A stretch of 64,000 bases of DNA from an uncultured Acidobacteriota bacterium. GTDB taxonomy: Bacteria > Acidobacteriota > Vicinamibacteria > Vicinamibacterales > 2-12-FULL-66-21. Where the stretch lies: positions 10,023 through 74,022 of the forward strand of contig CAVYTY010000022.1 of NCBI GenBank assembly GCA_963771395.1, in the 5' to 3' direction. Below the pieces are notes generated by a model. The model was not told the DNA's origin. It worked only from the letters and a program-made list of their open reading frames with translations, and did not search any database. The translations under genes were made by a program, and so were the position numbers. Shown piece after piece: positions 27,421-41,233 of the stretch; the stretch's first letter is position 1; each line of letters opens with the position of its first letter.

Positions 27421-28398
27421 TTACCGCGACAGAGGTCCGTAGGCCTTCGCCGCCACGTCCGGGAAGTCCGTGAACACACCGTCAACGCCCAGCTGGCGGA
27501 ACTGCTCGAACTCCGCCTCGGGTTTCCCCTGGTAGCCCGCCGGCAGGAACTCCTTGTCGACACGAATGGTCCAGACGTGCACCAGAAGTCCCAGCGCATG
27601 CGCGCGAGTCACCAGATCGGTGGGCGTGCCAAGCGACCCGTCCGGATTCACCGGCACGAGGAGACGCTTTTCCGGCCCGATGGCATCGGCGTACTCGGTG
27701 ATGCTCTTCAGCCCACTGCCTTCGACCATCGCGGCGCCGCTGACGAGTTGGACGAGCCGCACTTCCGTCTTCCGCCGCAGCTCGCGCAGGTTGCCCTGCT
27801 CGAACGACTGGATGAATACCGGCGCATCACGGCGATTCCAGCCGTGTCTGGTCAACGACGCGAGCAGAGGCTCCTCGAGCGGCAAGTGAATGCCGCGAAA
27901 GTACGTCGGGTGCTTCGTCTCGGGATAGATTCCGACGGGCCGCCCACGGGCGCCGCCGAGCTGCTGCGCGAGCGCGATGACTTCGTCAAACGTGGGGATC
28001 TGAAACTGGCCATCATAGGCGTGCGACCTGAAGGTCAACCGCTCCCGCGCGCGAAGCGTTTTGACCTCCGCCAGCGTGAAGTCTTCGCTGAACCAGCCCG
28101 TCAGCGACTGGCCGTCAATCGTCCTGGTGCGCTTGCGCTCGGGAAACCGGTCCGCGACATCCGTCGTCCCGCTGATTTCGTTCTCGTGCCGCGCAATGAG
28201 GACACCGTCTTTCGTCGAGACGAGATCCGGCTCGATGAAATCCGCGCCCATCTCTACCGCCAGGCGATAGGCCTCGAGCGTGTGCTCGGGACGATGCCCA
28301 CTCGCGCCACGGTGCGCGATGATGAGCGGCCTCGGCGGAGCCGTCGCCGCCGAGGCCGAGGCGAAGAGCAGGACCAGTACGACGGAGCGCCCTACCAC
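27421..28398 (-). CDS. glpQ: Glycerophosphodiester phosphodiesterase
   Basis: IIAHRGASG..PEHTLEAY, FIEPDLVSTKDG, IYPETKHP, FIQSFE, GVDGVFTDFPD. GTG start overlaps the receptor stop. Confidence 0.92.
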   Translation of the reverse strand: MVGRSVVLVLLFASASAATAPPRPLIIAHRGASGHRPEHTLEAYRLAVEMGADFIEPDLVSTKDGVLIARHENEISGTTDVADRFPERKRTRTIDGQSLTGWFSEDFTLAEVKTLRARERLTFRSHAYDGQFQIPTFDEVIALAQQLGGARGRPVGIYPETKHPTYFRGIHLPLEEPLLASLTRHGWNRRDAPVFIQSFEQGNLRELRRKTEVRLVQLVSGAAMVEGSGLKSITEYADAIGPEKRLLVPVNPDGSLGTPTDLVTRAHALGLLVHVWTIRVDKEFLPAGYQGKPEAEFEQFRQLGVDGVFTDFPDVAAKAYGPLSR

Positions 28399-31300
28399 AG
28401 CAGCTTGAACCCGAGCTGGAGCTGGCGCGGATCGTAGGTGGAGGTAATCGTGCCGAAGGCGGCGGCGCTGCGGTTGCCATTCGGCGCGCGGAAGTTCGTA
28501 CGGTTCAGCAGGTTGAAGGCCTCGAAGCGGAACTCGAACTGCGCCGGACCGCCGAGGGCGAACCGCTTGGAGGCCGCCAGATCGAACTGCCAGAACATCG
28601 GGCCGCGCACGGAGTTGCGGGTTGCGTTCCCGAACGGCTGGCTGGGATCGGTCGGAGCGACCACGCATGCCCTGTTGAACCAGTTGTTGATCGTGCGCTC
28701 GGCGCCTGAGGCCATCGGGTCGCACGTCACGTTCGGACGGTAGTTGTTCGCGCCGCGGAAGTCCTGGACGATGCCGGAAACCACGGCCGTCGCACCGGGG
28801 CTGTAGGTGAACGTGACCGGCTCTCCGGCGAACATCGAGTTGATGCCCGCGAGCTGCCAGCCGCCGATGAACGCATCCATCAGCGGTGATGCGCCCGACC
28901 CCCAGCGGCGGCCCGTCCCGAACGGCAGCGACCACACGAAGCTCGTGGTGCTGTTGTACGGCTGGTGATAGTTCGACAACCCGAAGTCCGCCTCCATGTT
29001 GCGGAAGTCCTGCGGCGCCGGGAAGTTGCCATTCGAGTTCTCGAGCGACTGCGCGCCGTTGTCCTCGGTTTCCGAGAGCGTCAGCGAGCTCAGCAGTGTC
29101 AGCTCGCGGCTCATACGCCACTCGAACTTGGTCTGCAGGGCCTTGTAGCGGGACTTGCCCCCGTTGAACGCGTAGGTGATGTCGGAATAGCTGGGGTTGG
29201 GGCGGCGGTCCTGCAACTGGATCGTCCCAGCGGAATTGTTCGGGAACGCCTGGTTGTAGTTGGCAAAGAGCAGCAGATCCTCGGCCCGGTTCCCCACGTA
29301 TGCGACGTCGAGCAGCATGTTGTGGCGCAACTCGCGCTGAACGGAGATGTACCAGCTCTGAACCGGGCTCGAATGGAAGTCCGGTGGCATGTAGGTGATG
29401 TTCGCCGTCAACGGGTTGAACTTCGACGGGTCGGCAAGGCCAACCGGGTAACCCTGTTCCGCTGGCACGAACGAAGGCGAGGTCGGCAGCGTCTGGTTCA
29501 CCACCGCGTTGACCACCTGTGGCCCGTTGATGGGCAGGATGTCTCCACCGCCGGCGCGGCTGAAGTGCACGTAGCTGACGCCGTAACCGCCGCGAACGAC
29601 AGTGCCCGGAGTCACCGTGTAGGCGAACCCGAGCCGGGGGCCGAAGTTGTTCCGGTCGGGGTTGATCAAGCGCGCGATCGTAAACCGAGCCATCCTTCGC
29701 CAGGATCATCGAGTTCGTCGCCGGATCGAAGTTCGACAGCACGTTGTTCTTTTCCCAGTAGGGCGTCGAGTACTCGTAGCGCAGGCCCAGGTTCAAGGTC
29801 AGCCGGCTCGTGGCGCGCCAGTCGTCCTGCACATAGGCAAAGTGCATGTTCCGGCGGAGGTCCGCCACGAGCACGCTGCTGAGCGCGTACTGCGCGCGCA
29901 GGCCGAGCATGAAGTCGGCAAGGTTGTAGAGGTTGCTCGAGGCGGCGCCGGTGGGACGGGTGAACTGACCGTTGTACGTATCGCGGCCGTAGAGCGGGTT
30001 CACGTCCTGCACCTGCGTGTCAATCCGCTGGAATTCGTATCCACTCTTGAACGAATGCGCCTTCATCGTCCAGGTGTAGTTCACTTTCGGGTTGTAGACA
30101 GTCGGGTACTGCCACTGCGGATTGGTCGCCTGCCGACCGAGGTCGGAGTAACCCGTGATGAGCTGCGTCGGAAGACCGCCCGCGATACGGCTGTCGGTGG
30201 GCAGACCGGGCAGGCCGAACGCATCGAGCGCGCTCTCGCTGCCAAGCGCCGGCGGGTCCTTGCCGGCCTCGGTCCACGAATAGCCGAACCGCACCTCCAG
30301 GAGCGACGTAGTACTCGGTACCCACGTGCTCCCCAGGACCAACTGGCGGTTGCGCGCGTAGATGTGCCCGTTGCCGGCGCCGCCGGACGGCAGCGGAATG
30401 TTCGGCTGATCGTCGGTGGTCAGATTCCGAAACCCGTAGCGACCGAACATCGAAAGGGACGGGCTCGCCTGCAGGTCGATCTTGCCCCCGGCCTTGTTGG
30501 AATCAGCGGTGAACTGCTGCAGGCTGCTGTAGTTGTTCGTGGTGCCGGAAACGTTCGTGTCGGGGAGCGCCGACAGGACCTCGCGCGCAAAGGCGGTCAT
30601 CGGGATCGAGGCACCGGCCGGATACACGACGCCGGTGCGCGGGTCGCGCACGTCGACCGACATGATGCCCTGCCGCTGCGCCGGCGTGGCAATGGTCGCA
30701 AAGCCGGTCGCCTTCCGCGTCTGGCGCAGGCCCTCGTAGTCAGCGAAGAAGAACGCTTTGTTCCTCACGATCGGACCGCCAACGACTCCGCCGAACTGGT
30801 GCCGATCGAGCTCGGGTTTGCCCGTCGCCGGCTTGAAGAATCCTGTCGCATTCATGCTCGTATCGCGGAGGAAGTCCCAGCCGCTGCCGTGCAGCGCGTT
30901 CGTGCCGCTCCGGTAGTTCACGTTGATCGTCGCTCCCGCGGCGCGGCCGTATTCCGCGCTCAAGTTGTTCGTCACGACCTTGAACTCGCCGATGGCGTCC
31001 GGTGACGGCTGCATGACCTGGTTCGAAAAGCCCTGGTTGCTGGTGCCATAGGCATTGTTGTCGACGCCGTCAATCAGGAAGTTGTTGAAGGGGCTCCGCA
31101 GGCCGTTCACGTTCAACGCTCCCTCACGCGGCGTGTTGCCGGTCGTGAGCGACGACCCGGCGAGCTTCACGCCGGTCGTCAGCAGTGCCAGCGACGAGTA
31201 CTCGCGCGAGAGCAGCGGCAGCGCGCGCGTCTGATCGCCGGTGATCACCTGGCCCCGCTGGCTCGAGTCTGTCTCGAGCAGCGGCGACGACGCCGTCACC

Positions 31301-31647
31301 TCGACCTTCTCGGTGACCTGGCCCACCGGCATCTGCAGATCCACGCGAAGGCGCGCGCCAACCTGCACGACGACGTTCTCGACCAGTGCCAGCGCGAACC
31401 CGCTCTTTTCAGCGGTGACGACATAGATACCGGGCTTCACCGCGGGAAACTCGAAGCTGCCGTTGTCGCTCGACGTCCTGACGACGGAAATGCCCGTGTC
31501 GACGCCGGTGAGCGTGACTTTGGCCGTAGGGACGACCGCGTTGGTGGCGTCGCGGACGGTGCCAACGACGGTCGCCGAATCAAACTGCGCCCGCGCCGTC
31601 GAAGCCGTCAAAAGCACCGCGAATGCACAGAAAAGTCCGACACGCAT
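28392..31647 (-). CDS. TonB-dependent receptor (Oar-like); frameshift near 29670
   Basis: GTVRDATNAVVP, NNFLIDGVDNN, HQFGGVVGGPI, then DRNNFGPRLGFAY through PRQLQLGFKLLW. Confidence 0.88.
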
Positions 31648-31737
31648 GGATGCACCTCGAGTGGAAGTTTCTCTAGGCGAAAACCTATCGGTTTTGTGCA
31701 ACGGCCGCAAGAACTGAATGCAACTTGGGCGTGAACA

Positions 31738-31932: not shown

Positions 31933-32096
31933 ATCCCACCCTTCATCCCGTCGTCCCCACGTTCGTCACGAAACGTGTCCGATCGTTTCGCACGCGCACA
32001 CTTGCAAACGAGAGTGCTGCCGCTCACGTCTAAGCACGCGATAACACCAGAACGTGCCGTGCGCGCCCCGAGCGCCCGACGTAGAGGAGACGCGTC

Positions 32097-32639
32097 ATGC
32101 TCTCATTGCTGACTGTGGGACTCGTGGTCGCACTCGTGCCCGCGGATCCGGCCGCGCCCGCACCGTCCTCGGCGATCTCGCCCGCGCACTTCCTCCTGCT
32201 GAACGCGCCCGACCGTCGCGTGCGCGCGCCCGAGGCCCGCGTCCAGTTGTTGCTGGCCGAAGGGCTGCATCGTTCACGCACGTTCGCCTCGCTCATGACG
32301 GCGCTCAACCGGACCGACGTCATCGTGTATGTCGAATCCGTGATGACCCTGCCGAAGGACACCAACGGGCGTTTGACGATGGTGCCGCGCGGCAAAGGCG
32401 AGTTCCGCTACCTGCGCGTGCAGATCCGCGCCGACCTGTCGAGGCAGGAGTCCATCGCGCTCATCGGGCACGAACTGCAGCACGCGCTCGAGATCGCCGA
32501 GGCCACTGAGGTCCGCGACTCGACGAGCCTGGTCAGGTTGTACGAGCGGATCGGACACATGAGCATCGGAGACCATGCGTACGACACCGAGGCCGCACGC
32601 GACACCGGCCGCGTGGTCCGGCGGGAGCTGGCCAGCTAG
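32097..32639 (+). CDS. Secreted hypothetical protein with HExxH zinc motif
   Basis: GAGGAG ribosome-binding site, signal peptide, ALIGHELQHALE. Confidence 0.7.
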   Translation: MLSLLTVGLVVALVPADPAAPAPSSAISPAHFLLLNAPDRRVRAPEARVQLLLAEGLHRSRTFASLMTALNRTDVIVYVESVMTLPKDTNGRLTMVPRGKGEFRYLRVQIRADLSRQESIALIGHELQHALEIAEATEVRDSTSLVRLYERIGHMSIGDHAYDTEAARDTGRVVRRELAS

Positions 32640-32679
32640 TCTGGTGTTTGAATTCAGGAGATAGGAGATAGGAGTTCGC

Positions 32680-33213
32680 GTGGTGCTGCAAAAGGCAGAT
32701 GCAGACCCAGCGCGAGCACGTCTCGCCGACAGGCTCACGACCGAGCAGCAGCTCGGGCTGGCCCGCGCCCGAGCGCAGCAGATGCTCGACGAGCAGGCCA
32801 AGTGCTGGACCGACGCGTTGCGGCCCGAGCTTGCGGCGCAGGGCATCCGCTTCCTCGAACCGACCGAGTACCACGACAACCTCTCGCTGTTCCTCGCCGG
32901 CCATTTTCAGCGCGAGATCGCCCCCGTGCTGACGCCGCTGGCGTTCGACCCCGGGCATCCGTTTCCGCACAGCTCCAATCGCAGCAAGAACTTCGCGGTC
33001 GCAATCAAGCACGAGGGACGGACGAAGTTCGCGCGGATCAAGCTGCCGCCGGTGCTGCCCCGCTTCATCCAGCTCCCGGCGGCGTTCGCCGGCGGCGGCA
33101 CCGCCTTCGTCTTCATCGAGGACGTCGTGTGCGCCAACGGCAGATCTTCCACTGCGAACGGAGTTCACCCAATCTTTCCTTCGCGAGCTTCGTGTTCTTT
33201 GCCGTCTTCGTGA
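32680..33213 (+). pseudogene. ppk1: Internal fragment of polyphosphate kinase 1, no catalytic domains
   Basis: LRPELAAQGIRF, PVLTPLAFDPGHPFPH.SN.S.N, FARIKLP..LPRF, FIEDVV..N match the PPK1 N/head region; the ORF ends after about 177 aa. Confidence 0.75.
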
Positions 33214-33279
33214 TGCGCCGTCGGCCGTGATGTGCCGTCGGCCGGTAGTTGTGAGATGGCTTCTGGACCGTCGGCGACT

Positions 33280-33780
33280 CTAGACGAGCTTGCGCAGCAT
33301 CTTTGGCGTGATGAACCAGCAGAGAGCGCCCTTGCCCTTCGGAGGGAAGATCGAAAAGTCGATCCGGCAGATCGCGCCCTTCTTGAACGAGAGCGGCACC
33401 TTGGCGCCGATCAGAAACGCGGCGAGCTCGCCCATGTTCGGCTCGTGCCCGACGAGCGCGATGCGGGCCTTCCGCATGTGCTTGCCGAGCTCGTTCATCA
33501 CGGCCGCCGGGGACCCGGCGGGCGTCAGCGCATCGGTGTTGGCGATCGGCGGCGTCGACTTCATGATCTCGGCAAACACGTCCGCCGTCTGGCGGGCGCG
33601 AACGAGAGGACTCGACAGAATCTGATCGAAGCCGACGTCGAGCGCCTCGAGCGCCTTGGCTTCCTTGCGCAGGCGCGCGATACCATCGCTCGTCAGCGGC
33701 CGCTTTGAATCGTCGGGGTATTCTTCGCCGCGTTCGGCCGCCACGCCGTGTCGAATCAGATACAGCTCCAACGTCGCCAT
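33280..33780 (-). CDS. sixA: Phosphohistidine phosphatase SixA
   Basis: LYLIRHG, RPLT, SSPLVRARQTA, LVGHEP. Confidence 0.92.
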   Translation of the reverse strand: MATLELYLIRHGVAAERGEEYPDDSKRPLTSDGIARLRKEAKALEALDVGFDQILSSPLVRARQTADVFAEIMKSTPPIANTDALTPAGSPAAVMNELGKHMRKARIALVGHEPNMGELAAFLIGAKVPLSFKKGAICRIDFSIFPPKGKGALCWFITPKMLRKLV

Positions 33781-33793
33781 TCGGGTTCTACCT

Positions 33794-34762
33794 CTACTGA
33801 CCCGCGGCCGGCCCGATCGAACGCGCCGGTGCGCGCCTCACGGCAGGGCGCGCTTTGAGCGTCATCTTCAACGCGCGGGCGCGGTGCGCCAGCTGCGGCA
33901 CCACCACCGCCCGTGTCGTCTCGACCACCTCCGCCAGCTTCGGCAGCGCAGCAATGTAGCGGGCATGCAGGTGCCGGCACTGCTTTTCGAGCGCCAGGCT
34001 GATGATCTCGAGTCCGCCGTCGGGCCGCGACCGGTCGGATGGCTTCGCCTGCACGGCGGCGACGTGCGTCTGCAGCACCTGCAGGTCGTGCAGGCGGCCG
34101 AGCGTGTCCTGCGCGCGCTTCACGGCGCGAACGGGCGCCGACGCCGACTTCACGCCGGCATCGAATGCGAGCTCCATCGCATAGCGAAGCTTCTTTGCCG
34201 CGATGCGCACCTGGTGCAGTTGCTCGGGCGCATACATGTGCCCGGCCGCCGCCATCGCGGCGGCGAGAGCCTTGGACCTCTTGAGCAGCCGCGCGCCGAG
34301 CGCGTCGCGCCATGCCTCGGACCCGGTCTCCGCCAGCACCTCGCCATCGCGCCCAGACGCCGATCGAGCTTCGAGAGATTGACGTGGTCGAGACGCTTGA
34401 GCATCACGGCCCGCCGCGCGTCCCTCTCGGTGATGACACGGCCGCGGACGTCCTCGAGCGCGGGACGCGGCAGTGTCTCGTCCGCGACGAGCTCGTCGAG
34501 GATCTGGATCGTGACATCGAGCTCCCGGACAGTGCCGAGCGCCGTCGTCAAGGACCGGATCTTGCGGCGGGCCTTGCCCGCTTTGGTGCCCTTGACGCCT
34601 GAGGTCAGTACCGGAACGGCTTCCCGTAAACGCCGTGATGCGACGCGTGCCTGATGCACCCCGTGCCCGTCGCCCTGGACGGCGCCAGGGAGATGGCGTT
34701 TGAGCGCCGCGGCGCGGCGCGCGAGCAATCGGCTCGCGACAGTGAGTGTTTCTGCGGTTCAT
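33794..34762 (-). CDS. CHAD-domain (polyphosphate-binding) protein, frameshifted
   Basis: VHQARVASRRLR, LGTVRELDV, LHQVRIAAKKLRY, QDTLGRLHDLQV. Confidence 0.85.
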   Translation of the reverse strand: MNRRNTHCREPIARAPRRGAQTPSPWRRPGRRARGASGTRRITAFTGSRSGTDLRRQGHQSGQGPPQDPVLDDGARHCPGARCHDPDPRRARRGRDTAASRARGRPRPCHHREGRAAGRDAQASRPRQSLEARSASGRDGEVLAETGSEAWRDALGARLLKRSKALAAAMAAAGHMYAPEQLHQVRIAAKKLRYAMELAFDAGVKSASAPVRAVKRAQDTLGRLHDLQVLQTHVAAVQAKPSDRSRPDGGLEIISLALEKQCRHLHARYIAALPKLAEVVETTRAVVVPQLAHRARALKMTLKARPAVRRAPARSIGPAAGQ

Positions 34763-34835
34763 GGTAGGATCGCGACTCAACTTGAGAGAAAACGGCCAGT
34801 AAAGTCAACAAACTCGCGGCCGGCTCAGCCAGTAT

Positions 34836-34851
34836 ATAACGGCCATGTAAC
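34836..34851 (+). promoter_or_regulatory. Pho-box-like pair upstream of ppx
   Basis: ATAAC(34836) and GTAAC(34847), 11 bp apart. Confidence 0.45.
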
Positions 34852-34889
34852 GAAACAAGCCCGGAGAGCTCAGCCCAGCCGCCTCCCGC

Positions 34890-36486
34890 ATGCGTATCGC
34901 TGCCATCGACATCGGAACCAACTCGATCCACATGATCGTGGTCCAGGTGCGCCCCGATCTGTCCTTCGAGGTCATCGACCGCGAGAAAGACATGGTCCGG
35001 CTCGGCGCCGGCGGCCTCGACGGCCGCAGCCTGACGCCCACCGCGATCGAGCGCGGCGCTCCAGACGCTGTCCAAGTTCCGGCGCATCGCGGAATCGCAC
35101 AAAGTCGACGAGATCGTCGCCTGCGCCACGAGCGCGACGCGCGAGTCCGACAACGGCGGCGACTTCATCGCGGAGGTCGATCGGCAAACGGGGATCCGCA
35201 TCCGCGTCATCTCCGGTACCGAGGAAGCGCGACTCATCCACCTCGCTGCCGGCTACGGCGTCGACATCGGCGCCACCACCGCGGTCGTCGTCGACATCGG
35301 CGGCGGGAGCGTCGAGATCACGCTCGGGACATCCACGCACTTGACGGTCGGCCGCAGTTTCAAGGTCGGCGTCATCCGGCTCACCGAACGGTTCGTCAAG
35401 AGCGACCCGATCGCCGGAGGCGACGAACGCCGGCTGGTCAAGCACCTCACTCGCGAGATGGGCAGCCATATCGATCAGATCGTCGGTAAAGGCTTCACTC
35501 GGGTGATCGGCACGTCCGGCACGATCTTGAGCCTCGGCTTGATGGCCTCGACCGAGGACGGCGAGCCTCCCGAGGATCTGCGCAATCGCCGGGTCAGCGC
35601 GAAGGCCCTTCACCGTCTCAGAAAGCACCTCGTCGAATCGGACATCGAGGAACGTCTCGCGACGCCAGGCATGGATCCCCGGCGCGCGGATCTGTCGGTG
35701 GCCGGTTCGGTCCTCTTCGACACGATCATCCGCCGGCTCGGGACCAATGAGTTCACGCTGTGCGATCTCGCCCTGCGCGAAGGCATCGTGCTCGACTACA
35801 TCCACAAGCAACAGCGCCCGCATCCGCAAGGTCGAGCGCTACCCCGACGTCCGGCGCCGCAGCATCGTCGAGCTTGGAGAGCGGTGCGGGTACTGGTCGG
35901 AGCATGCACAACAGGTCGCGAGGCTGGCGCTGAACATCTTCGATCAGACGCGCGGCGTGCACGGGCTGTCGGACCGGGAGCGGGAGTGGCTCGAGTACGG
36001 TGCGCTCCTCCACGACATCGGCGTCCACATCAGCTACGAGCGTCACCACCGCCATTCGTATTACTTGATCAAGAACGGCGACCTCCGCGGGTTCGACCCG
36101 CAGGAAATCGAGGTCATCGCGCTCATCGCGCGCTACCATCGCCAGGCGACCCCGAAGAAATCGCACGAGGGCTACGGCGATCTGAAGGGGCCGCTGCGCA
36201 AGACCGTCAAGATCCTCTCGGCCATGGTGCGGCTCGCCGAAGGCCTCGATCGCAGCCACGCGCAGGCGCTCGCGGGCATCGACCTGTATCCGCGCAGCGA
36301 CGACTACATCGCGCGCCTGCGCGCCACGGGCGACGCCGAGCTCGAGCTCTGGGCCGCCAACCGCCACGTCGCGCCCCTCGAGCGATTGCTCGGCAAACCG
36401 GTCCGCTTCGAGGTCGCCGGCAACGAACTACAAGGACGCGTGGTCGACGGCACACCGACCACTCGGTTACAGAACGCCAATGCTGA
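34890..36486 (+). CDS. ppx: Exopolyphosphatase Ppx/GppA with HD domain; frameshifts near 35050 and 35810, end approximate
   Basis: AAIDIGTNSIHM, ISGTEEARL, DIGGGSVE, GTSGT, ALREGI, ALLHDIG..HHRHSYYLI. Confidence 0.9.
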
Positions 36487-37178
36487 ACAACCTGACGACG
36501 CGCCACGAGTATCCGGGAAAACTGTTCGTGGTCGAAGGCATCGACGGGTCCGGAAAGACGACGCAACTGGCGCTGCTGGCGAAGTGGCTTAGCGCCGCCG
36601 GCCACCCGGTGTTCGTCACCGAGTGGAACTCGTCGGCGCTGGTGAAGGCCGCGACCAAGTCGGGGAAGAAGAAGAACTCGCTGACGCCCATGACGTTCAG
36701 CCTGTTGCACGCGACGGACTTCGCCGACCGGCTGCTCTACAACATCATTCCGCCCCTCAAGGCCGGCATGATCGTGCTCGCCGACCGTTACGCCTACACG
36801 GCGTTCTCGCGCGACGCGGCGCGCGGCGTCGATCGGCGCTGGGTGCGCGAGCTCTACAGCTTTGCGGTCCGGCCGGACCTCGCGGTGTATTTTCGGGTGC
36901 CGATCGAGGTCTCCGCCGACCGTCTCCTCGCCCGCCGCGTGAAGCTCAAGTTCTACGAAGCGGGCCTGGACATGGGCTGGAGCACGAACGCGGTCGAGAG
37001 CTTCAAGATATTCCAGGGCAAGGTGCTCGAGGAGTACGACCGGATCGTGGACGAGTTCGAGCTGAGCGTCATCCCCGCGAGCGGCAGCATCACGGAACAG
37101 CAGCGGACCTTCCGCAAAATCGTTTCTCAGCATCTGGCAATCGAGGACACGAATGACGAGCTCGACGAGCTTGCCTGA
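36480..37178 (+). CDS. Thymidylate-kinase-like P-loop kinase A (intact Walker A)
   Basis: VEGIDGSGKTTQ, HATDFADRL, ADRYAYT; overlaps the end of ppx. Confidence 0.85.
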   Translation: MLNNLTTRHEYPGKLFVVEGIDGSGKTTQLALLAKWLSAAGHPVFVTEWNSSALVKAATKSGKKKNSLTPMTFSLLHATDFADRLLYNIIPPLKAGMIVLADRYAYTAFSRDAARGVDRRWVRELYSFAVRPDLAVYFRVPIEVSADRLLARRVKLKFYEAGLDMGWSTNAVESFKIFQGKVLEEYDRIVDEFELSVIPASGSITEQQRTFRKIVSQHLAIEDTNDELDELA

Positions 37179-38029
37179 CGGAGCGCCGCACCGGCGCGAC
37201 GGATCGCTGACAGGACGGCGCCAACGGCGGCGCCGGCAGCTACTACGGCAACGGGATCCCGTACCTGCCGATCGCGGGTTACCCCGGCAAGATCATCGCC
37301 GTCGAAGGGACCGACGGCGTCGGCCGGTCGACGCAGATCACGCTCCTCCGGGAATGGCTCGAGGTGCAGGGGTACGGCGTGATCGAGACCGGGTGGACGA
37401 GGTCGGAGCTGATGCAGCCGACGATCGAACTGGCCAAGTCCAGCAATACCCTGAACAAGCTGACGTTCGTGCTGCTCTACGCCACGGACTTCGCCGATCG
37501 GCTCGAGAAAGAGATCATCCCGGCGCTCAAGGCCGGCTTCATCGTGCTGTCGGATCGCTACATCTACACGGCCATGGCGCGAGCCGGCGTGCGCGGCGTC
37601 GACCGCACCTGGATTCGCAGCCTGTACGGGTTCGCCATCGCGCCGCACCTCGTGTTCTATCTGAAGATTGACGAGAAGACGCTCATCCGCCGGGTTCTGC
37701 AGGCCCGCGGCATGGACTACTGGGAGTCGGGCATGGACATGAAGCTCGGCGACGACATCTACGAGAGCTTCCGGGCCTATCAGAAGGCGCTCTTGAAGGA
37801 GTACGGGTCGATGTCGGAGGAGTTCGGGTTCCGGGTCCTCGACGCCCGGCGCAAGGTCGACGTCATCCAGGACGAGCTGCGGCGTCAGATTGGCGCGTTC
37901 CTGGCCGAGAGCGACATCACCACCGGGCCGAAGCGGAGCCGGCAGGCGCAGCGACGCCGTAAAGCCTGGCTGTTTACATCGAAATTTACACCAGCGAAAT
38001 TGCCCGGAAACTGGCACCGGATAGGCTGA
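37153..38029 (+). CDS. Thymidylate-kinase-like protein B (degenerate Walker A); indel near 37200, true stop possibly near 37962
   Basis: Frame is open from 37211: YYGNGIPYLPIAGYPGKIIAVEGTDGVGRSTQ, YATDFADRL, SDRYIYT. Confidence 0.82.
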
Positions 38030-38083
38030 CAGGGTCGGTATGAGCCCTGTCATGAACGCTGGCTGACCCCGGATCGACCTGTC

Positions 38084-38946
38084 GTGCAGACAACCCCGCC
38101 CCCCTGACCGTCACTGTCCGTCCCCAGTCACCGCAGTCGACGGATCACCCCGTCTCGATCGACGTCCAGGGCCTCAACTTCTTTTACGGGGCCAAGCGGG
38201 CGCTCGAGAACATCAGCATCGGCATTCCCGCCAAGCTCGTCACGGCGTTCATCGGACCTTCGGGATGCGGCAAGAGCACGTTCCTGCGGACGCTCAACCG
38301 CATGAACGACATCATCGCCGGCACGCGCGTCGAAGGCCGCGTGCTCATCGACGGGGACGACATCTACCGGCCCGGAACCGACGTCGTCGCCCTGCGCCGA
38401 CGGGTCGGGATGGTGTTCCAGAAGTCGAACCCCTTCCCGAAGTCCATCTTCGAAAACGTCGCCTACGGGCTGCGGATCAACGGCCTCGCCGCCAGCCGCG
38501 CCGACCTGAACGGCCGCGTCGAAGAGAGCCTCCGCCAGGCCGCCATCTGGGACGAAGTGAAGGATCGGCTTCACGACTCCGCGAATGCGCTCTCCGGTGG
38601 CCAGCAGCAGCGGCTGTGCATCGCGCGGGCGCTGGCCGTCAAGCCCGAGATCGTGCTGATGGACGAGCCGGCTTCGGCCCTCGATCCGATTGCCACGCAG
38701 CGCATCGAAGAGCTGATCTATCAGCTCAAGACGCAGTACACGATCGTCATCGTGACGCACAACATGCAGCAGGCGGCGCGCGTGTCCGACCGTACCGCGT
38801 TCTTCTGGCTCGGCCGCCTGATCGAGCACGGCCCGACGGACCGGATCTTCACGAACCCGGCTGAGAAGCTCACGGAAGACTACGTGACAGGCGATTTGGT
38901 AGCTTCGGTATCAGCGTCAGCTCAGCTTCAGCTGGCAGACGGCTGA
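38084..38946 (+). CDS. pstB: Phosphate ABC ATPase PstB; both ends affected by indels
   Basis: [57 protein letters not shown]. Confidence 0.93.
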
Positions 38947-38970
38947 TGCTGATGGCTGAGAGCTGAACTC
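38908..38970. repeat. TCAGC/GCTGA short-period hairpin between pstB and phoU
   Basis: atcagcgtcagctcagcttcagc followed by gctgatgctgatggctgagagctga. Confidence 0.6.
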
Positions 38971-38976
38971 ACGAAC

Positions 38977-39658
38977 ATGGCCGAGCGTATCGTGCCCCAC
39001 TTTCAAGAGGAGCTGGAACAGCTCAAGACTCGCCTGCTCGAAATGGGCGGGCTGGCCGAGGACCGCGTCCGCTCGGCGGTCAAGGGCCTCGTGCAGCGCG
39101 ATGCCCCGATCATCGATCGCGTCCTCGCGCGGCGACGGCCCGATCAACCAGCTGCACATCGAAATCGACAGCCGGTGCTTCAAGCTCCTGGCCCTGCACC
39201 AGCCGATGGCCGTCGACCTGCGGGCGATCGTGGCGGCCGTCAAGATCAACACCGACCTCGAGCGCGTCGGCGACCTGGCAATCAACATCGCCGAGGCGGT
39301 GCGTCGCTACATGCGGAACCCGCCGGTGAAGGAGCTCATCGACATCCCGCGGATGGCCGAGATCGCTCAGCGGATGCTGCGCAACGCGCTCGACGCGTTC
39401 GTGCGCCGCGACACCGAGCTCGCGCACGGCGTGCTCAACGAGGACGACACGCTCGATGCGCTCAAGACGCAGGTCTTCCGCGAGCTCCTGACCTACATGC
39501 TCCAGGACCCGCACACGATCGAGCCGTCGCTCGACCTGATCCTGATCTCGCGGCACCTCGAACGCATCGGCGACCACGCCACGAACGTCGCCGAAGACGT
39601 CATCTTCATGGTGTCGGCCAAGGACGTGCGCCACCACGCGGGCGAAGTCGGGGCCTAG
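38977..39658 (+). CDS. phoU: Phosphate signalling protein PhoU; frameshift near 39130
   Basis: LLEMGGLAE, HQPMAVDLR, DLERVGD, LERIGDHATNVAE. Confidence 0.92.
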
Positions 39659-39735
39659 TCGGCTCGGCTCTGGGCTCTTTTCCCCCTTTTTACCTGCCAC
39701 CTTTCCTCCTCCCGCCATTGATACAATGGCCGGGT

Positions 39736-39924
39736 TTGGCGGAGACTGAATCCCTCTGCGTCCACTGCCGGCGCCGGCGGGCCGACCCGCTGTGGCAACC
39801 CTTCTGCAGCGAACGGTGCCGGATGGCGGACCTGGGCCGGTGGCTCTCAGAGGACTACCGGGTGCCGGACGACAATCCGCAGGACGTGCCAGACGACGAC
39901 GCTGACGGAGAGAACGACCGTTAA
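39736..39924 (+). CDS. yacG: DNA gyrase inhibitor YacG
   Basis: CVHC...PFCSERCRMADLGRW. Confidence 0.8.
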   Translation: MAETESLCVHCRRRRADPLWQPFCSERCRMADLGRWLSEDYRVPDDNPQDVPDDDADGENDR

Positions 39925-39949
39925 TCACGCGAGCTGACGTAGATTCCGC

Positions 39950-41233
39950 ATGGCCGACACGCTCACGATCACCGACAACCGCACCGGCAAGCAGTACGAG
40001 ATCCCTATCCAGGACGGCACGATTCGGGCCATGGATCTGCGTCAAATCAAAGCTGTCCCGGACGAGTTCGGGATGATGACGTACGACCCGGCGTTCATGA
40101 ATACGGCGGCATGTCACAGCCGGATCACCTACATCGACGGCGACAAGGGCGTCCTGCTCTATCGGGGCTATCCGATCGAGCAGCTGGCCGAGCGCAGCGA
40201 TTTCCTGGAGACCGCGTATCTCATCCTCTTCGGCGAGCTGCCCACGGAGCCCAGCACCAGCAGTGGACCCTCGACATCACGCAGCACACGATGCTGCACA
40301 CGAACATCTCGAAGCTGATGGAAGGGTTCCAGTACGACGCCCACCCGATGGGCATGTTCATCAGCACCGTCGGCGCGCTCTCGACGTTCTATCTCGACGC
40401 CAAGGACGTCTTCTCGAGCGAGTCGCGGCGCCTGCAGACGATTCGCCTCATCGCCAAGGTCCCGACGATTGCCGCCTACGCTTATCGCCACTCGATCGGC
40501 CGCCCCTACAACCAGCCCGACAACGACCTGAGCTACTCGGGCAACTTCATCAACATGCTCTTCAGGATGACCGGGCAATTACACGGTGAACCCGGTCCTC
40601 GAGCGCGCGCTCGACGTGCTGTTCATCCTGCACGCCGATCACGAGCAGAACTGCAGCACCAGCACGATGCGGAACATCGGGAGCGCGCAGGCGGACCCGT
40701 ACTCGTGCCTCGCCGGGGCCGCCGCGGCGCTCTACGGTCCGCTGCACGGCGGCGCGAACGAGGCCGTCCTGCGGATGCTGACCGAGATCGGCTCGCTCAA
40801 GCACGTGCCCGCGTTCATCAAGCGGGTGAAGGGCGGCGACGGCCGCCTGATGGGATTCGGCCATCGCGTCTACAAGTCCTACGACCCGCGCGCGGCGATC
40901 ATCAAGCGGATCGCGGACCTCGTGTTCGAGGTGACGGGCAAGAACCCGCTGCTCGAGATCGCGCTGGAGCTCGAGCGCATCGCACTCGAAGATGAGTATT
41001 TCGTCTCGCGGAAGCTTTATCCCAACGTCGACTTCTATTCGGGCTTGATCTATCAGGCGATGGGGTTCCCGGTCGACATGTTCCCGGTGCTCTTCGCCAT
41101 CCCTCGCACGGCGGGATGGATCGCGCAGTGGGAGGAAATGCTCCTCGACCCGGACCAGAAGATCGCCCGCCCGCGCCAGATCTACATCGGGTCGGCCCAA
41201 CGTGATTACGTGTCGCGCGAGAAGCGGCGCTGA
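39950..41233 (+). CDS. gltA: Citrate synthase; frameshifts near 40250 and 40575
   Basis: [52 protein letters not shown]. Confidence 0.95.

Follow-up and report, generated by a model that had tools for sequence, protein, structure and literature searches.

The window analysed here is a stretch of 64,000 nucleotides (nt) from the genome of an uncultured Acidobacteriota bacterium of the order Vicinamibacterales (assembly GCA_963771395.1, contig CAVYTY010000022.1, positions 10,023 to 74,022 of the forward strand). It contains two adjacent genes with the fold of thymidylate kinase (TMK), designated copy A and copy B, which follow the exopolyphosphatase gene ppx. A and B very probably specify a family-3 polyphosphate kinase, PPK3, one subunit each; the enzymatic activity, the direction of the reaction, the heteromeric assembly and the role of B are attributed to them from sequence and by analogy with an archaeal enzyme. 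The pair and the genes around it, together an island of phosphate and polyphosphate (polyP) functions, are as follows.

32683..33139, + strand: relic of ppk1 (TIGR03705 and the Pfam PP_kinase middle domain)
33280..33780, − strand: sixA, phosphohistidine phosphatase (TIGR00249, 86.2 bits versus a cut-off of 74.5; Pfam His_Phos_1)
33794..34728, − strand: CHAD-domain protein gene in two frames (Pfam CHAD on both open reading frames (ORFs), E 1.9e-14 and 7.9e-19)
34890..36592, + strand: ppx, exopolyphosphatase, in three frames (TIGR03706 matches the middle piece, E 7.3e-50; PRK11031 and PRK10854 match the C-terminal one)
36480..37178, + strand: copy A, predicted cPPK3-type (catalytic) subunit of 232 amino acids (match to PDB 2plr/5h70; bacterial c-type clade)
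37153..38029, + strand: copy B, predicted rPPK3-type subunit (match to PDB 2plr; r-type clade with a Shimodaira–Hasegawa-like approximate likelihood-ratio (SH-aLRT) support of 99)
38302..38946, + strand: pstB, profile positions 50-246, the N-terminus lying upstream in another frame (TIGR00972, E 5.6e-96)
38977..39658, + strand: phoU in two frames (TIGR02135, 187.6 bits versus a cut-off of 130.25 on 39101-39655, positions 45-211)

The TIGRFAM and Pfam profiles that identified these genes bear out an earlier note on the window, which had placed the pair between CHAD/sixA and pstB-phoU. Across the operon part of the window, G+C is 64-69%.

Copy A is an intact ORF with the motifs GIDGSGKTT, ATDFADR, VLADRY, FYEAGLD and KSGKKK. 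The frame of copy B is open from 37211 to 38029 (272 amino acids) and contains YYGNGIPY, GTDGVGRST, ATDFADR, VLSDRY and YWESGMD. Both match Pfam PF02223 (Thymidylate_kin; E 2.4e-22 for A, 8.9e-23 for B), and an alignment of the two over 213 residues gives 43% identity (E 1e-54), a likeness that is not due to chance. The earlier note's description of two paralogous TMK-fold genes with these motifs is therefore accurate.

The closest structures point away from canonical thymidylate kinases (Tmks). When all chains in the PDB were searched, the best match of A was a "probable thymidylate kinase" of Sulfolobus tokodaii (2plr/4nzy/4rzx/5h70; E 3.5e-53, 183 bits, residues 13-217), and B matched 2plr (159 bits, E 1.4e-45). 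Canonical Tmk structures reached at best 59.7 bits against A and 58.8 bits against B. On the equivalog profile for thymidine monophosphate (dTMP) kinase, TIGR00041, both copies fall below the curated cut-off of 83.25 bits (79.5 for A, 78.8 for B). A third PF02223 gene of the same genome, on another contig (G000:C24:14921-15451; PF02223, 111.6 bits), scores 107.8 bits on TIGR00041 and is a canonical tmk, of the kind that the earlier note had suggested looking for elsewhere in the genome. A and B share with such enzymes their fold, Pfam family, P-loop, DRY motif and lid.

The S. tokodaii protein has a published identity. Höfmann et al. (J Biol Chem 2026, PMC12995831; bioRxiv 2024, 10.1101/2024.08.28.610084) describe the PPK3 family and list STK_15430 of S. 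tokodaii (PDB 2plr/5h70) as a homologue of the catalytic subunit cPPK3 (PMC12995831). In Sulfolobus acidocaldarius, Saci_2019 (cPPK3) and Saci_2020 (rPPK3) are annotated as thymidylate kinases and lie by ppx, with sixA and CHAD in the operon (PMC12995831). These are the two-subunit enzyme to which the earlier note had referred. According to that account, SaPPK3 is an a2b2 polyphosphate kinase in which Saci_2019 is active and is activated by Saci_2020, which is inactive alone; the complex prefers to make ATP, using ADP and polyP, and has no dTMP kinase activity (PMC12995831). The same paper reports that dTMP-binding residues of dTMP kinases are not conserved in PPK3s, that the Arg of DRX has been lost in rPPK3s, and that bacterial operons of such a make-up, with PPX, SixA, CHAD and PstC/S as neighbours, are predicted to encode PPK3, all of them with both subunit types (PMC12995831). 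Most PPK3 genomes are described there as being without PPK1 and PPK2, and an in situ replacement of PPK1 by PPK3 is proposed (PMC12995831). Acidobacteriota are named among the few bacterial homologues in the preprint (10.1101/2024.08.28.610084). Among the matches listed for literature from 2024 on PPK3 and polyphosphate, the TMK-derived family appears, by titles and abstract openings, only in PMC12995831 and its preprint; several other listed papers concern enzyme cascades that use "PPK3" as an enzyme label. The idea of a bacterial PPK3 is thus not new: the system in the window belongs to the published family, and its phylum already appears in the preprint.

Phylogenetic analysis placed both copies in this family. 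Quick trees were built from 95 sequences (LG+G4) and from 100 sequences (C20 mixture), with SH-aLRT values as support. In both trees A and B belong to a clade distinct from the canonical Tmks that the same genomes encode (support 98, 85 sequences, in the smaller tree), which is the separation that the earlier note had proposed looking for. In the larger tree, the clade around A is of bacterial c-types (35 sequences, support 87) and that around B of r-types (31 sequences, support 99). A search of 1.84 billion cluster representatives returned 306 clusters at E≤1e-30, 1911 at E≤1e-10 and 9407 at E≤1e-3. In a separate search, more than 7,900 clusters at 90% identity, out of 8,000 candidates scored, reached E≤1e-10. 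We also observed fused PPK3-like domains, in P0122, P0127, P0149 and P0152 (450-700 amino acids) and in P0153, P0174, P0190 and P0192 (1178-2575 amino acids). Examples include c-type and r-type units in one 460-residue chain whose second P-loop is degenerate, and domains within very long proteins.

The linkage to polyphosphate genes is conserved. Within the order, 23 of 41 genomes (the window's own included) encode a full A-type gene, and in all 23 a B-type gene stands directly behind it. Identity of A across these PPK3-bearing genomes is 78-98%, and 97-98% to members of the same genus (congeners). The synteny sixA..ppx-A-B was found by blastn in 10/10 neighbourhoods of the order. Near-identical proteins carry the names "Vicinamibacterales bacterium" or "Acidobacteria bacterium", and many of them are annotated "dTMP kinase" (JGI, NCBI). 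Beyond the order, a scan of one genome per species with three r-type representatives as query yielded 32 loci, all in bacterial metagenome-assembled genomes, with c-then-r tandems in Margulisbacteria, Melainabacteria, Elusimicrobiota, Planctomycetota, Ignavibacteriota, Bacteroidota, Goldbacteria, Sumerlaeota and Acidobacteriota. Adjoining ppx was detected at 16 of these loci and sixA at 14; the neighbours were found by blastp against the window's genes, so that distant ppx may be missed, and several contigs are short. The usual order of genes is sixA-c-r-ppx; in Acidobacteriota it is the window's order, followed by pstB-phoU. The survey of neighbourhoods called for by the earlier note thus finds the ppx/sixA linkage in all ten neighbourhoods of the order and in several other phyla.

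Further comparison with SaPPK3 revealed both likeness and difference. Both the window and the Sulfolobus system have two paralogous TMK-fold genes in tandem next to ppx, cluster sixA and CHAD with them, and have a canonical tmk apart from the pair; in both, the catalytic type has an intact P-loop, DRX motif and basic patch. Unlike the archaeal arrangement, sixA and CHAD are here divergent from ppx, pstB-phoU follow directly, and ppx overlaps A by 113 nt; the window's genome also adds PPK2 genes and a ppk1 relic. The ppx frame has no stop before the ATG of A, and its stop at 36592 lies 113 nt into A in 12/12 genomes compared; because this position is the same in all of them, the long overlap is real, and the earlier note was right that the pair overlaps the end of ppx. 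The overlapping segment (36480-36592), which is unusually long, gives Ppx an Arg-rich tail that is read in the +2 frame of A's P-loop region.

The two copies differ in features expected to separate a catalytic from a regulatory subunit. The KSGKKK patch of A aligns with KAKKKK of P0234, a representative of the Sulfolobales type, and A has a basic lid, RLLARRVKLK. K26, K63, D102, R103 and R148 are invariant among 24 aligned c-types, the P-loop Lys and the DRX Arg of A included. With reference to the positively charged polyP cleft of PMC12995831 (Fig. S16), A has by alignment the c-type KKK patch and the basic lid residues. In B, the position of the patch reads AKSSN, basic residues are missing from the lid, and Arg replaces the Walker Lys. 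Because A carries the Walker Lys, patch and basic lid and B does not, having Arg at the Walker position, we therefore read A as the predicted catalytic subunit and B as the regulatory type.

The r-type subunits in turn fall into two kinds. In 13/13 aligned r-types from several phyla, EGTDGVGR and DRY are invariant, and a motif (F/Y)(Y/F)GxG(L/I/V)PY, represented in B by YYGNGIPY, is present in 7 of the 13. Across the 32 loci, 24/24 r-types from outside Margulisbacteria have Arg at the Walker Lys together with DRY. All five Margulisbacteria r-types (L045-L047, L049, L050) instead keep the Walker Lys and have NKY for DRY. This NKY r-type is paired with a normal c-type, and ppx, sixA and CHAD were not detected in the 6-kb flanks of the five loci. 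In the quick trees the NKY r-type falls outside the clade of the Arg type; an approximately unbiased test did not reject a single r-type clade (p 0.339, the group having been named after the tree was seen). Two proteins tried as archaeal rPPK3 candidates, P0261 and P0197, were dropped, their relatives being Margulisbacteria; a protein-atlas look-up of P0261 listed bacterial clusters. A metagenome scan with the Sulfolobales-like P0234 returned one unrelated locus at 32% identity. Judging from these alignments, the bacterial regulatory subunit appears to differ consistently from the characterised one, in its Arg P-loop and retained DRY. The Lys-to-Arg Walker change is absent from the main texts of PMC12995831 and of the preprint 10.1101/2024.08.28.610084, and in this respect the observation goes slightly beyond them.

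We also considered the relation of the pair to PPK2. The earlier note had pointed to the P-loop fold that PPK2 enzymes share with TMK; this much stands, and according to PMC12995831 there is no kinship with PPK2 beyond the fold. The PPK2 profile PF03976 finds other genes in the genome and gave no match to A or B at E up to 0.01, and we rejected PPK2 membership on that ground. Two-domain class II PPK2 (Pseudomonas aeruginosa PA3455) offers an analogy, drawn in PMC12995831, in that an active P-loop unit is joined to an inactive paralogous unit thought to drive oligomerisation. A and B are separate, unfused genes; contigs C30 and C2 carry the genuine PPK2 genes of the genome.

Prediction of a 1:1 complex of A and B gave a score of 0.41, the best of three controls reaching 0.00. 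Of 80 solved complexes, 58 reached the mark used for such predictions, as did 2 of 110 mismatched pairs; 7 of those solved complexes and both mismatches reached it at a score of 0.60 or less. Between the prediction runs for A and B, contacts agree to at least 93%, with a predicted local distance difference test value of at least 80 for the partner. Tmk homodimers have solved structures, and the score may reflect likeness to them. The modelling that the earlier note had recommended thus separates the pair from the controls, weakly, in a way that likeness to Tmk dimers may explain.

From these observations and from SaPPK3, a working model can be drawn. A would move the terminal phosphate between polyP and ADP/ATP. 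If the analogy with SaPPK3 holds, the enzyme would mainly form ATP from ADP and polyP at low energy charge and would build polyP only at a high ATP/ADP ratio. B would be a non-catalytic, regulatory partner that binds A and activates it; the strong conservation of its P-loop and DRY hints that it may have retained a ligand, either a nucleotide or a phosphate compound. The pair would be co-transcribed with ppx in the phosphate/polyphosphate island, with sixA and CHAD divergent upstream and pstB-phoU downstream. The product of ppx would trim polyP, and pstB-phoU would link the island to the sensing of phosphate. CHAD modules bind polyP, and SixA is a phosphohistidine phosphatase. A promoter scan of 32000-40000 found no sigma-70-like sites, and terminator-like matches were uninformative.

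Several points weigh against this model. The predicted polyphosphate kinase activity of A and B is assigned by homology, and A is 43% identical to the Sulfolobales-type P0234. The loss of the DRX Arg expected of an rPPK3 (PMC12995831) is not seen in B, which has SDRY. Because B keeps DRY and has the Walker Arg, the account of Saci_2020 as a dead scaffold is not directly transferable to it, and the putative orthology of B to Saci_2020 is drawn from gene order and from the statement in PMC12995831 that all operons have both types. The frame of B in the assembly has no ATG, GTG or TTG before the GTG at 37364, which is downstream of the P-loop. In congeners, B starts at an ATG (MTSS(T/M)SLP...) that overlaps the last 26 nt of A; the window has the same ATG at 37153, out of frame with the body of B because the length-variable linker carries an insert of 34 nt and a gap of 6 nt. 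In addition, ppx and CHAD are frameshifted in the assembly, though soil contigs contradict these breaks (see below). Finally, the genome's pair of PPK2 genes differs from the published remark that most PPK3 genomes are without PPK1 and PPK2 (PMC12995831); because of these two PPK2 loci, and of ppk1 in 13 of 23 PPK3-bearing relatives, it need not be PPK3 that makes most of the polyP here. The earlier note's picture of a catalytic-plus-regulatory pair is supported, A having c-type and B r-type features, although B is not an rPPK3 as described, its DRY being retained.

The features of B also bear on the alternative that survives best, in which the enzyme is a hetero-oligomer of P-loop proteins that are both functional, or B has a ligand or activity of its own. 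B would then form a second nucleotide or polyP site, for example an ATP/ADP sensor or a kinase of other nucleotide preference. The P-loop and DRY of B are invariant in all 13 aligned r-types, its ATDFADR and the YWESGMD lid stretch are largely conserved, and the Walker position in the 24 r-types from outside Margulisbacteria is always Arg rather than random; such constraint is unusual for a purely structural subunit. In P-loop kinases, replacement of the Walker Lys by Arg usually abolishes phosphoryl transfer and leaves nucleotide binding intact, which tells against this reading. B also lacks the KKK patch and basic lid residues common to A and the c-types, and Saci_2020 is inactive on its own (PMC12995831). 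We regard this alternative as unlikely.

A further alternative is that the polyphosphate island is decaying in this genome, with a ppk1 relic and with ppx, CHAD and B as pseudogenes. In its favour, ppk1 is deleted at both ends, ppx is in three frames and CHAD in two, and the ATG of B is out of frame. The breaks, however, are not confined to these genes. The assembly comprises 30 contigs (7.16 Mb), and marker genes put its completeness at only 82%; in it, pstB and phoU are split over two frames each, and citrate synthase (39950-41233) and the TonB-receptor stretch described below are split likewise. There is about one frame break per kb over unrelated genes, other spots being 38130-38302 (pstB) and 38977-39101 (phoU). 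Contigs from the Logan collection, from four soil or rhizosphere runs of three studies, were aligned to 32600-38100; they represent strains at least 93% alike to the window, and one run may be the source sample. The base at 35050 (first ppx break) is absent from the contigs of 4/4 runs and that at 35809 (second ppx break) from those of 2/4, and an extra G after 34345 (CHAD break) is present in those of 4/4. Since the soil short-read contigs contradict the frameshifts of ppx and CHAD at exactly those breaks, these are probably consensus indel errors of the assembly. The pattern of breaks looks like that of an unpolished long-read consensus, which may also explain the completeness of 82%. With A intact besides and 97-98% identical to its congeners, decay of the island is a rather improbable explanation.

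The start of B differs from these breaks in that none of the soil contigs over 32600-38100 carries the window's version of the linker at 37153-37215. The linker between the start of B and YYGNGIPY (37153-37260) differs in length among congeners, with inserts of 0, 8, 34 and 48 nt; in G003 the insert of 48 nt is in frame, and in G006 that of 8 nt is out of frame. The overlap of A and B asserted by the earlier note is therefore found in the congeners (26 nt), and in the window it holds only if the break in the frame of B is an error.

That A and B are ordinary, redundant dTMP kinases that lie next to ppx by chance is scarcely credible and was rejected: the PF02223 matches, the near-threshold TIGR00041 scores and the public annotation of close relatives speak for it, and against it stand the canonical tmk above the cut-off elsewhere in the genome, a clade and a polyphosphate gene context of their own, a far closer match to the PPK3-type structure than to any Tmk, a ppx/sixA linkage kept across phyla, stretches after beta-2 (TEWNSS/TGWTRS) and after DRY (F(S/A)R(D/A)) that align unlike those of the genome's own Tmk, and the published findings that dTMP-binding residues are not conserved in PPK3s and that characterised homologues are without dTMP kinase activity (PMC12995831). 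The earlier note's preference for a polyphosphate kinase over a dTMP kinase is thus supported, so far as structure matches, trees, sub-threshold TIGR00041 scores and partner genes can indicate.

The model in which A and B form a PPK3 gains a further aspect from the relic of ppk1 that lies directly upstream of sixA. It is the sole PPK1-like match in the genome, covering TIGR03705 positions 57-202 of 673 at 32701-33135 with 93.5 bits, below the cut-off, and the Pfam PP_kinase middle domain with E 1.2e-22. Comparison by blastn and tblastn with the intact ppk1 of G006 (L028 10882-12981), G003 (L029) and G012 (L027) revealed that the relic corresponds to residues 88-227 of the 700-residue PPK1 of congeners; about 0.33 kb has been lost 5' of this segment and about 1.5 kb 3' of it. 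An intact ppk1 occupies the same spot in G003, G006, G010 and G012, on the strand of ppx-A-B and about 3.2 kb upstream of A; ppk1 is in two or three pieces there in G001, G008 and G009; G004 (L031) has a different relic (residues 15-118); and in G005 and G007 no ppk1 was found at that spot. A contig of soil run X1 bridges the window's 3' relic junction (32942-33230), and a contig of run X3 stops matching at 33137 and continues unlike the window, as a ppk1-bearing strain would. Because the end points of the relics differ, independent deletions of ppk1 are suggested. Across the 23 PPK3-bearing genomes, ppk1 is present in 13 (in one of them in three pieces), a relic in 2, and was not found in 8; PPK3 is kept in all congeners compared, whatever the state of their ppk1. 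These states fit the suggestion in PMC12995831 of in situ replacement of PPK1 by PPK3, caught at several stages, and the polymorphic relic beside the operon goes slightly beyond the main texts. PPK3 is not the genome's only polyP-nucleotide phosphotransferase, since two PPK2 loci are present: a two-domain PPK2 at G000:C30:122200-123682 (−), with its N-terminal domain split over two frames, and a single-domain PPK2 at G000:C2:145180-145878 (+).

Two further features lie upstream of the relic.

32097-32639, + strand: ORF of 180 amino acids with a signal-like N-terminus and a HELQH motif (without a Pfam or NCBIfam match; kept upstream of ppk1 in congeners)
27421-31710, − strand: N-terminus of a TonB-dependent receptor (CarboxypepD_reg, Plug, beta-barrel) joined to a glycerophosphodiester phosphodiesterase (GDPD; E 5e-48)

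The second of these is one long open frame that adjoins the polyphosphate island. It probably represents two phosphate-scavenging genes, one for the TonB receptor and one for the glycerophosphodiester phosphodiesterase, merged by frame errors.

A broader proposal is possible, though we hold it to be doubtful. Most bacterial PPK3s might use a type of regulatory subunit absent from the published main texts, with the invariant Walker Arg, complete conservation of DRY and of the lid core, and an arm (F/Y)(Y/F)GxG(L/I/V)PY at the N-terminus. In place of the DRX-less scaffold of Sulfolobus, it would be a constrained, probably nucleotide-binding sensor through which energy charge determines the direction of the kinase. 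In this genus of Vicinamibacterales, ppk1, a gene of the same island, might be undergoing repeated loss by independent deletions with PPK3 kept, so that the in situ replacement of PPK1, only proposed in PMC12995831, could be seen in progress.

The pair in the window is another case of a probable polyphosphate kinase labelled "dTMP kinase" in databases, from a family that is very common in soil Acidobacteria. With ppk1 intact, half-deleted or absent and PPK3 unchanged, the genus provides natural variants that could help to identify the enzyme behind polyP synthesis in this abundant group of soil bacteria.

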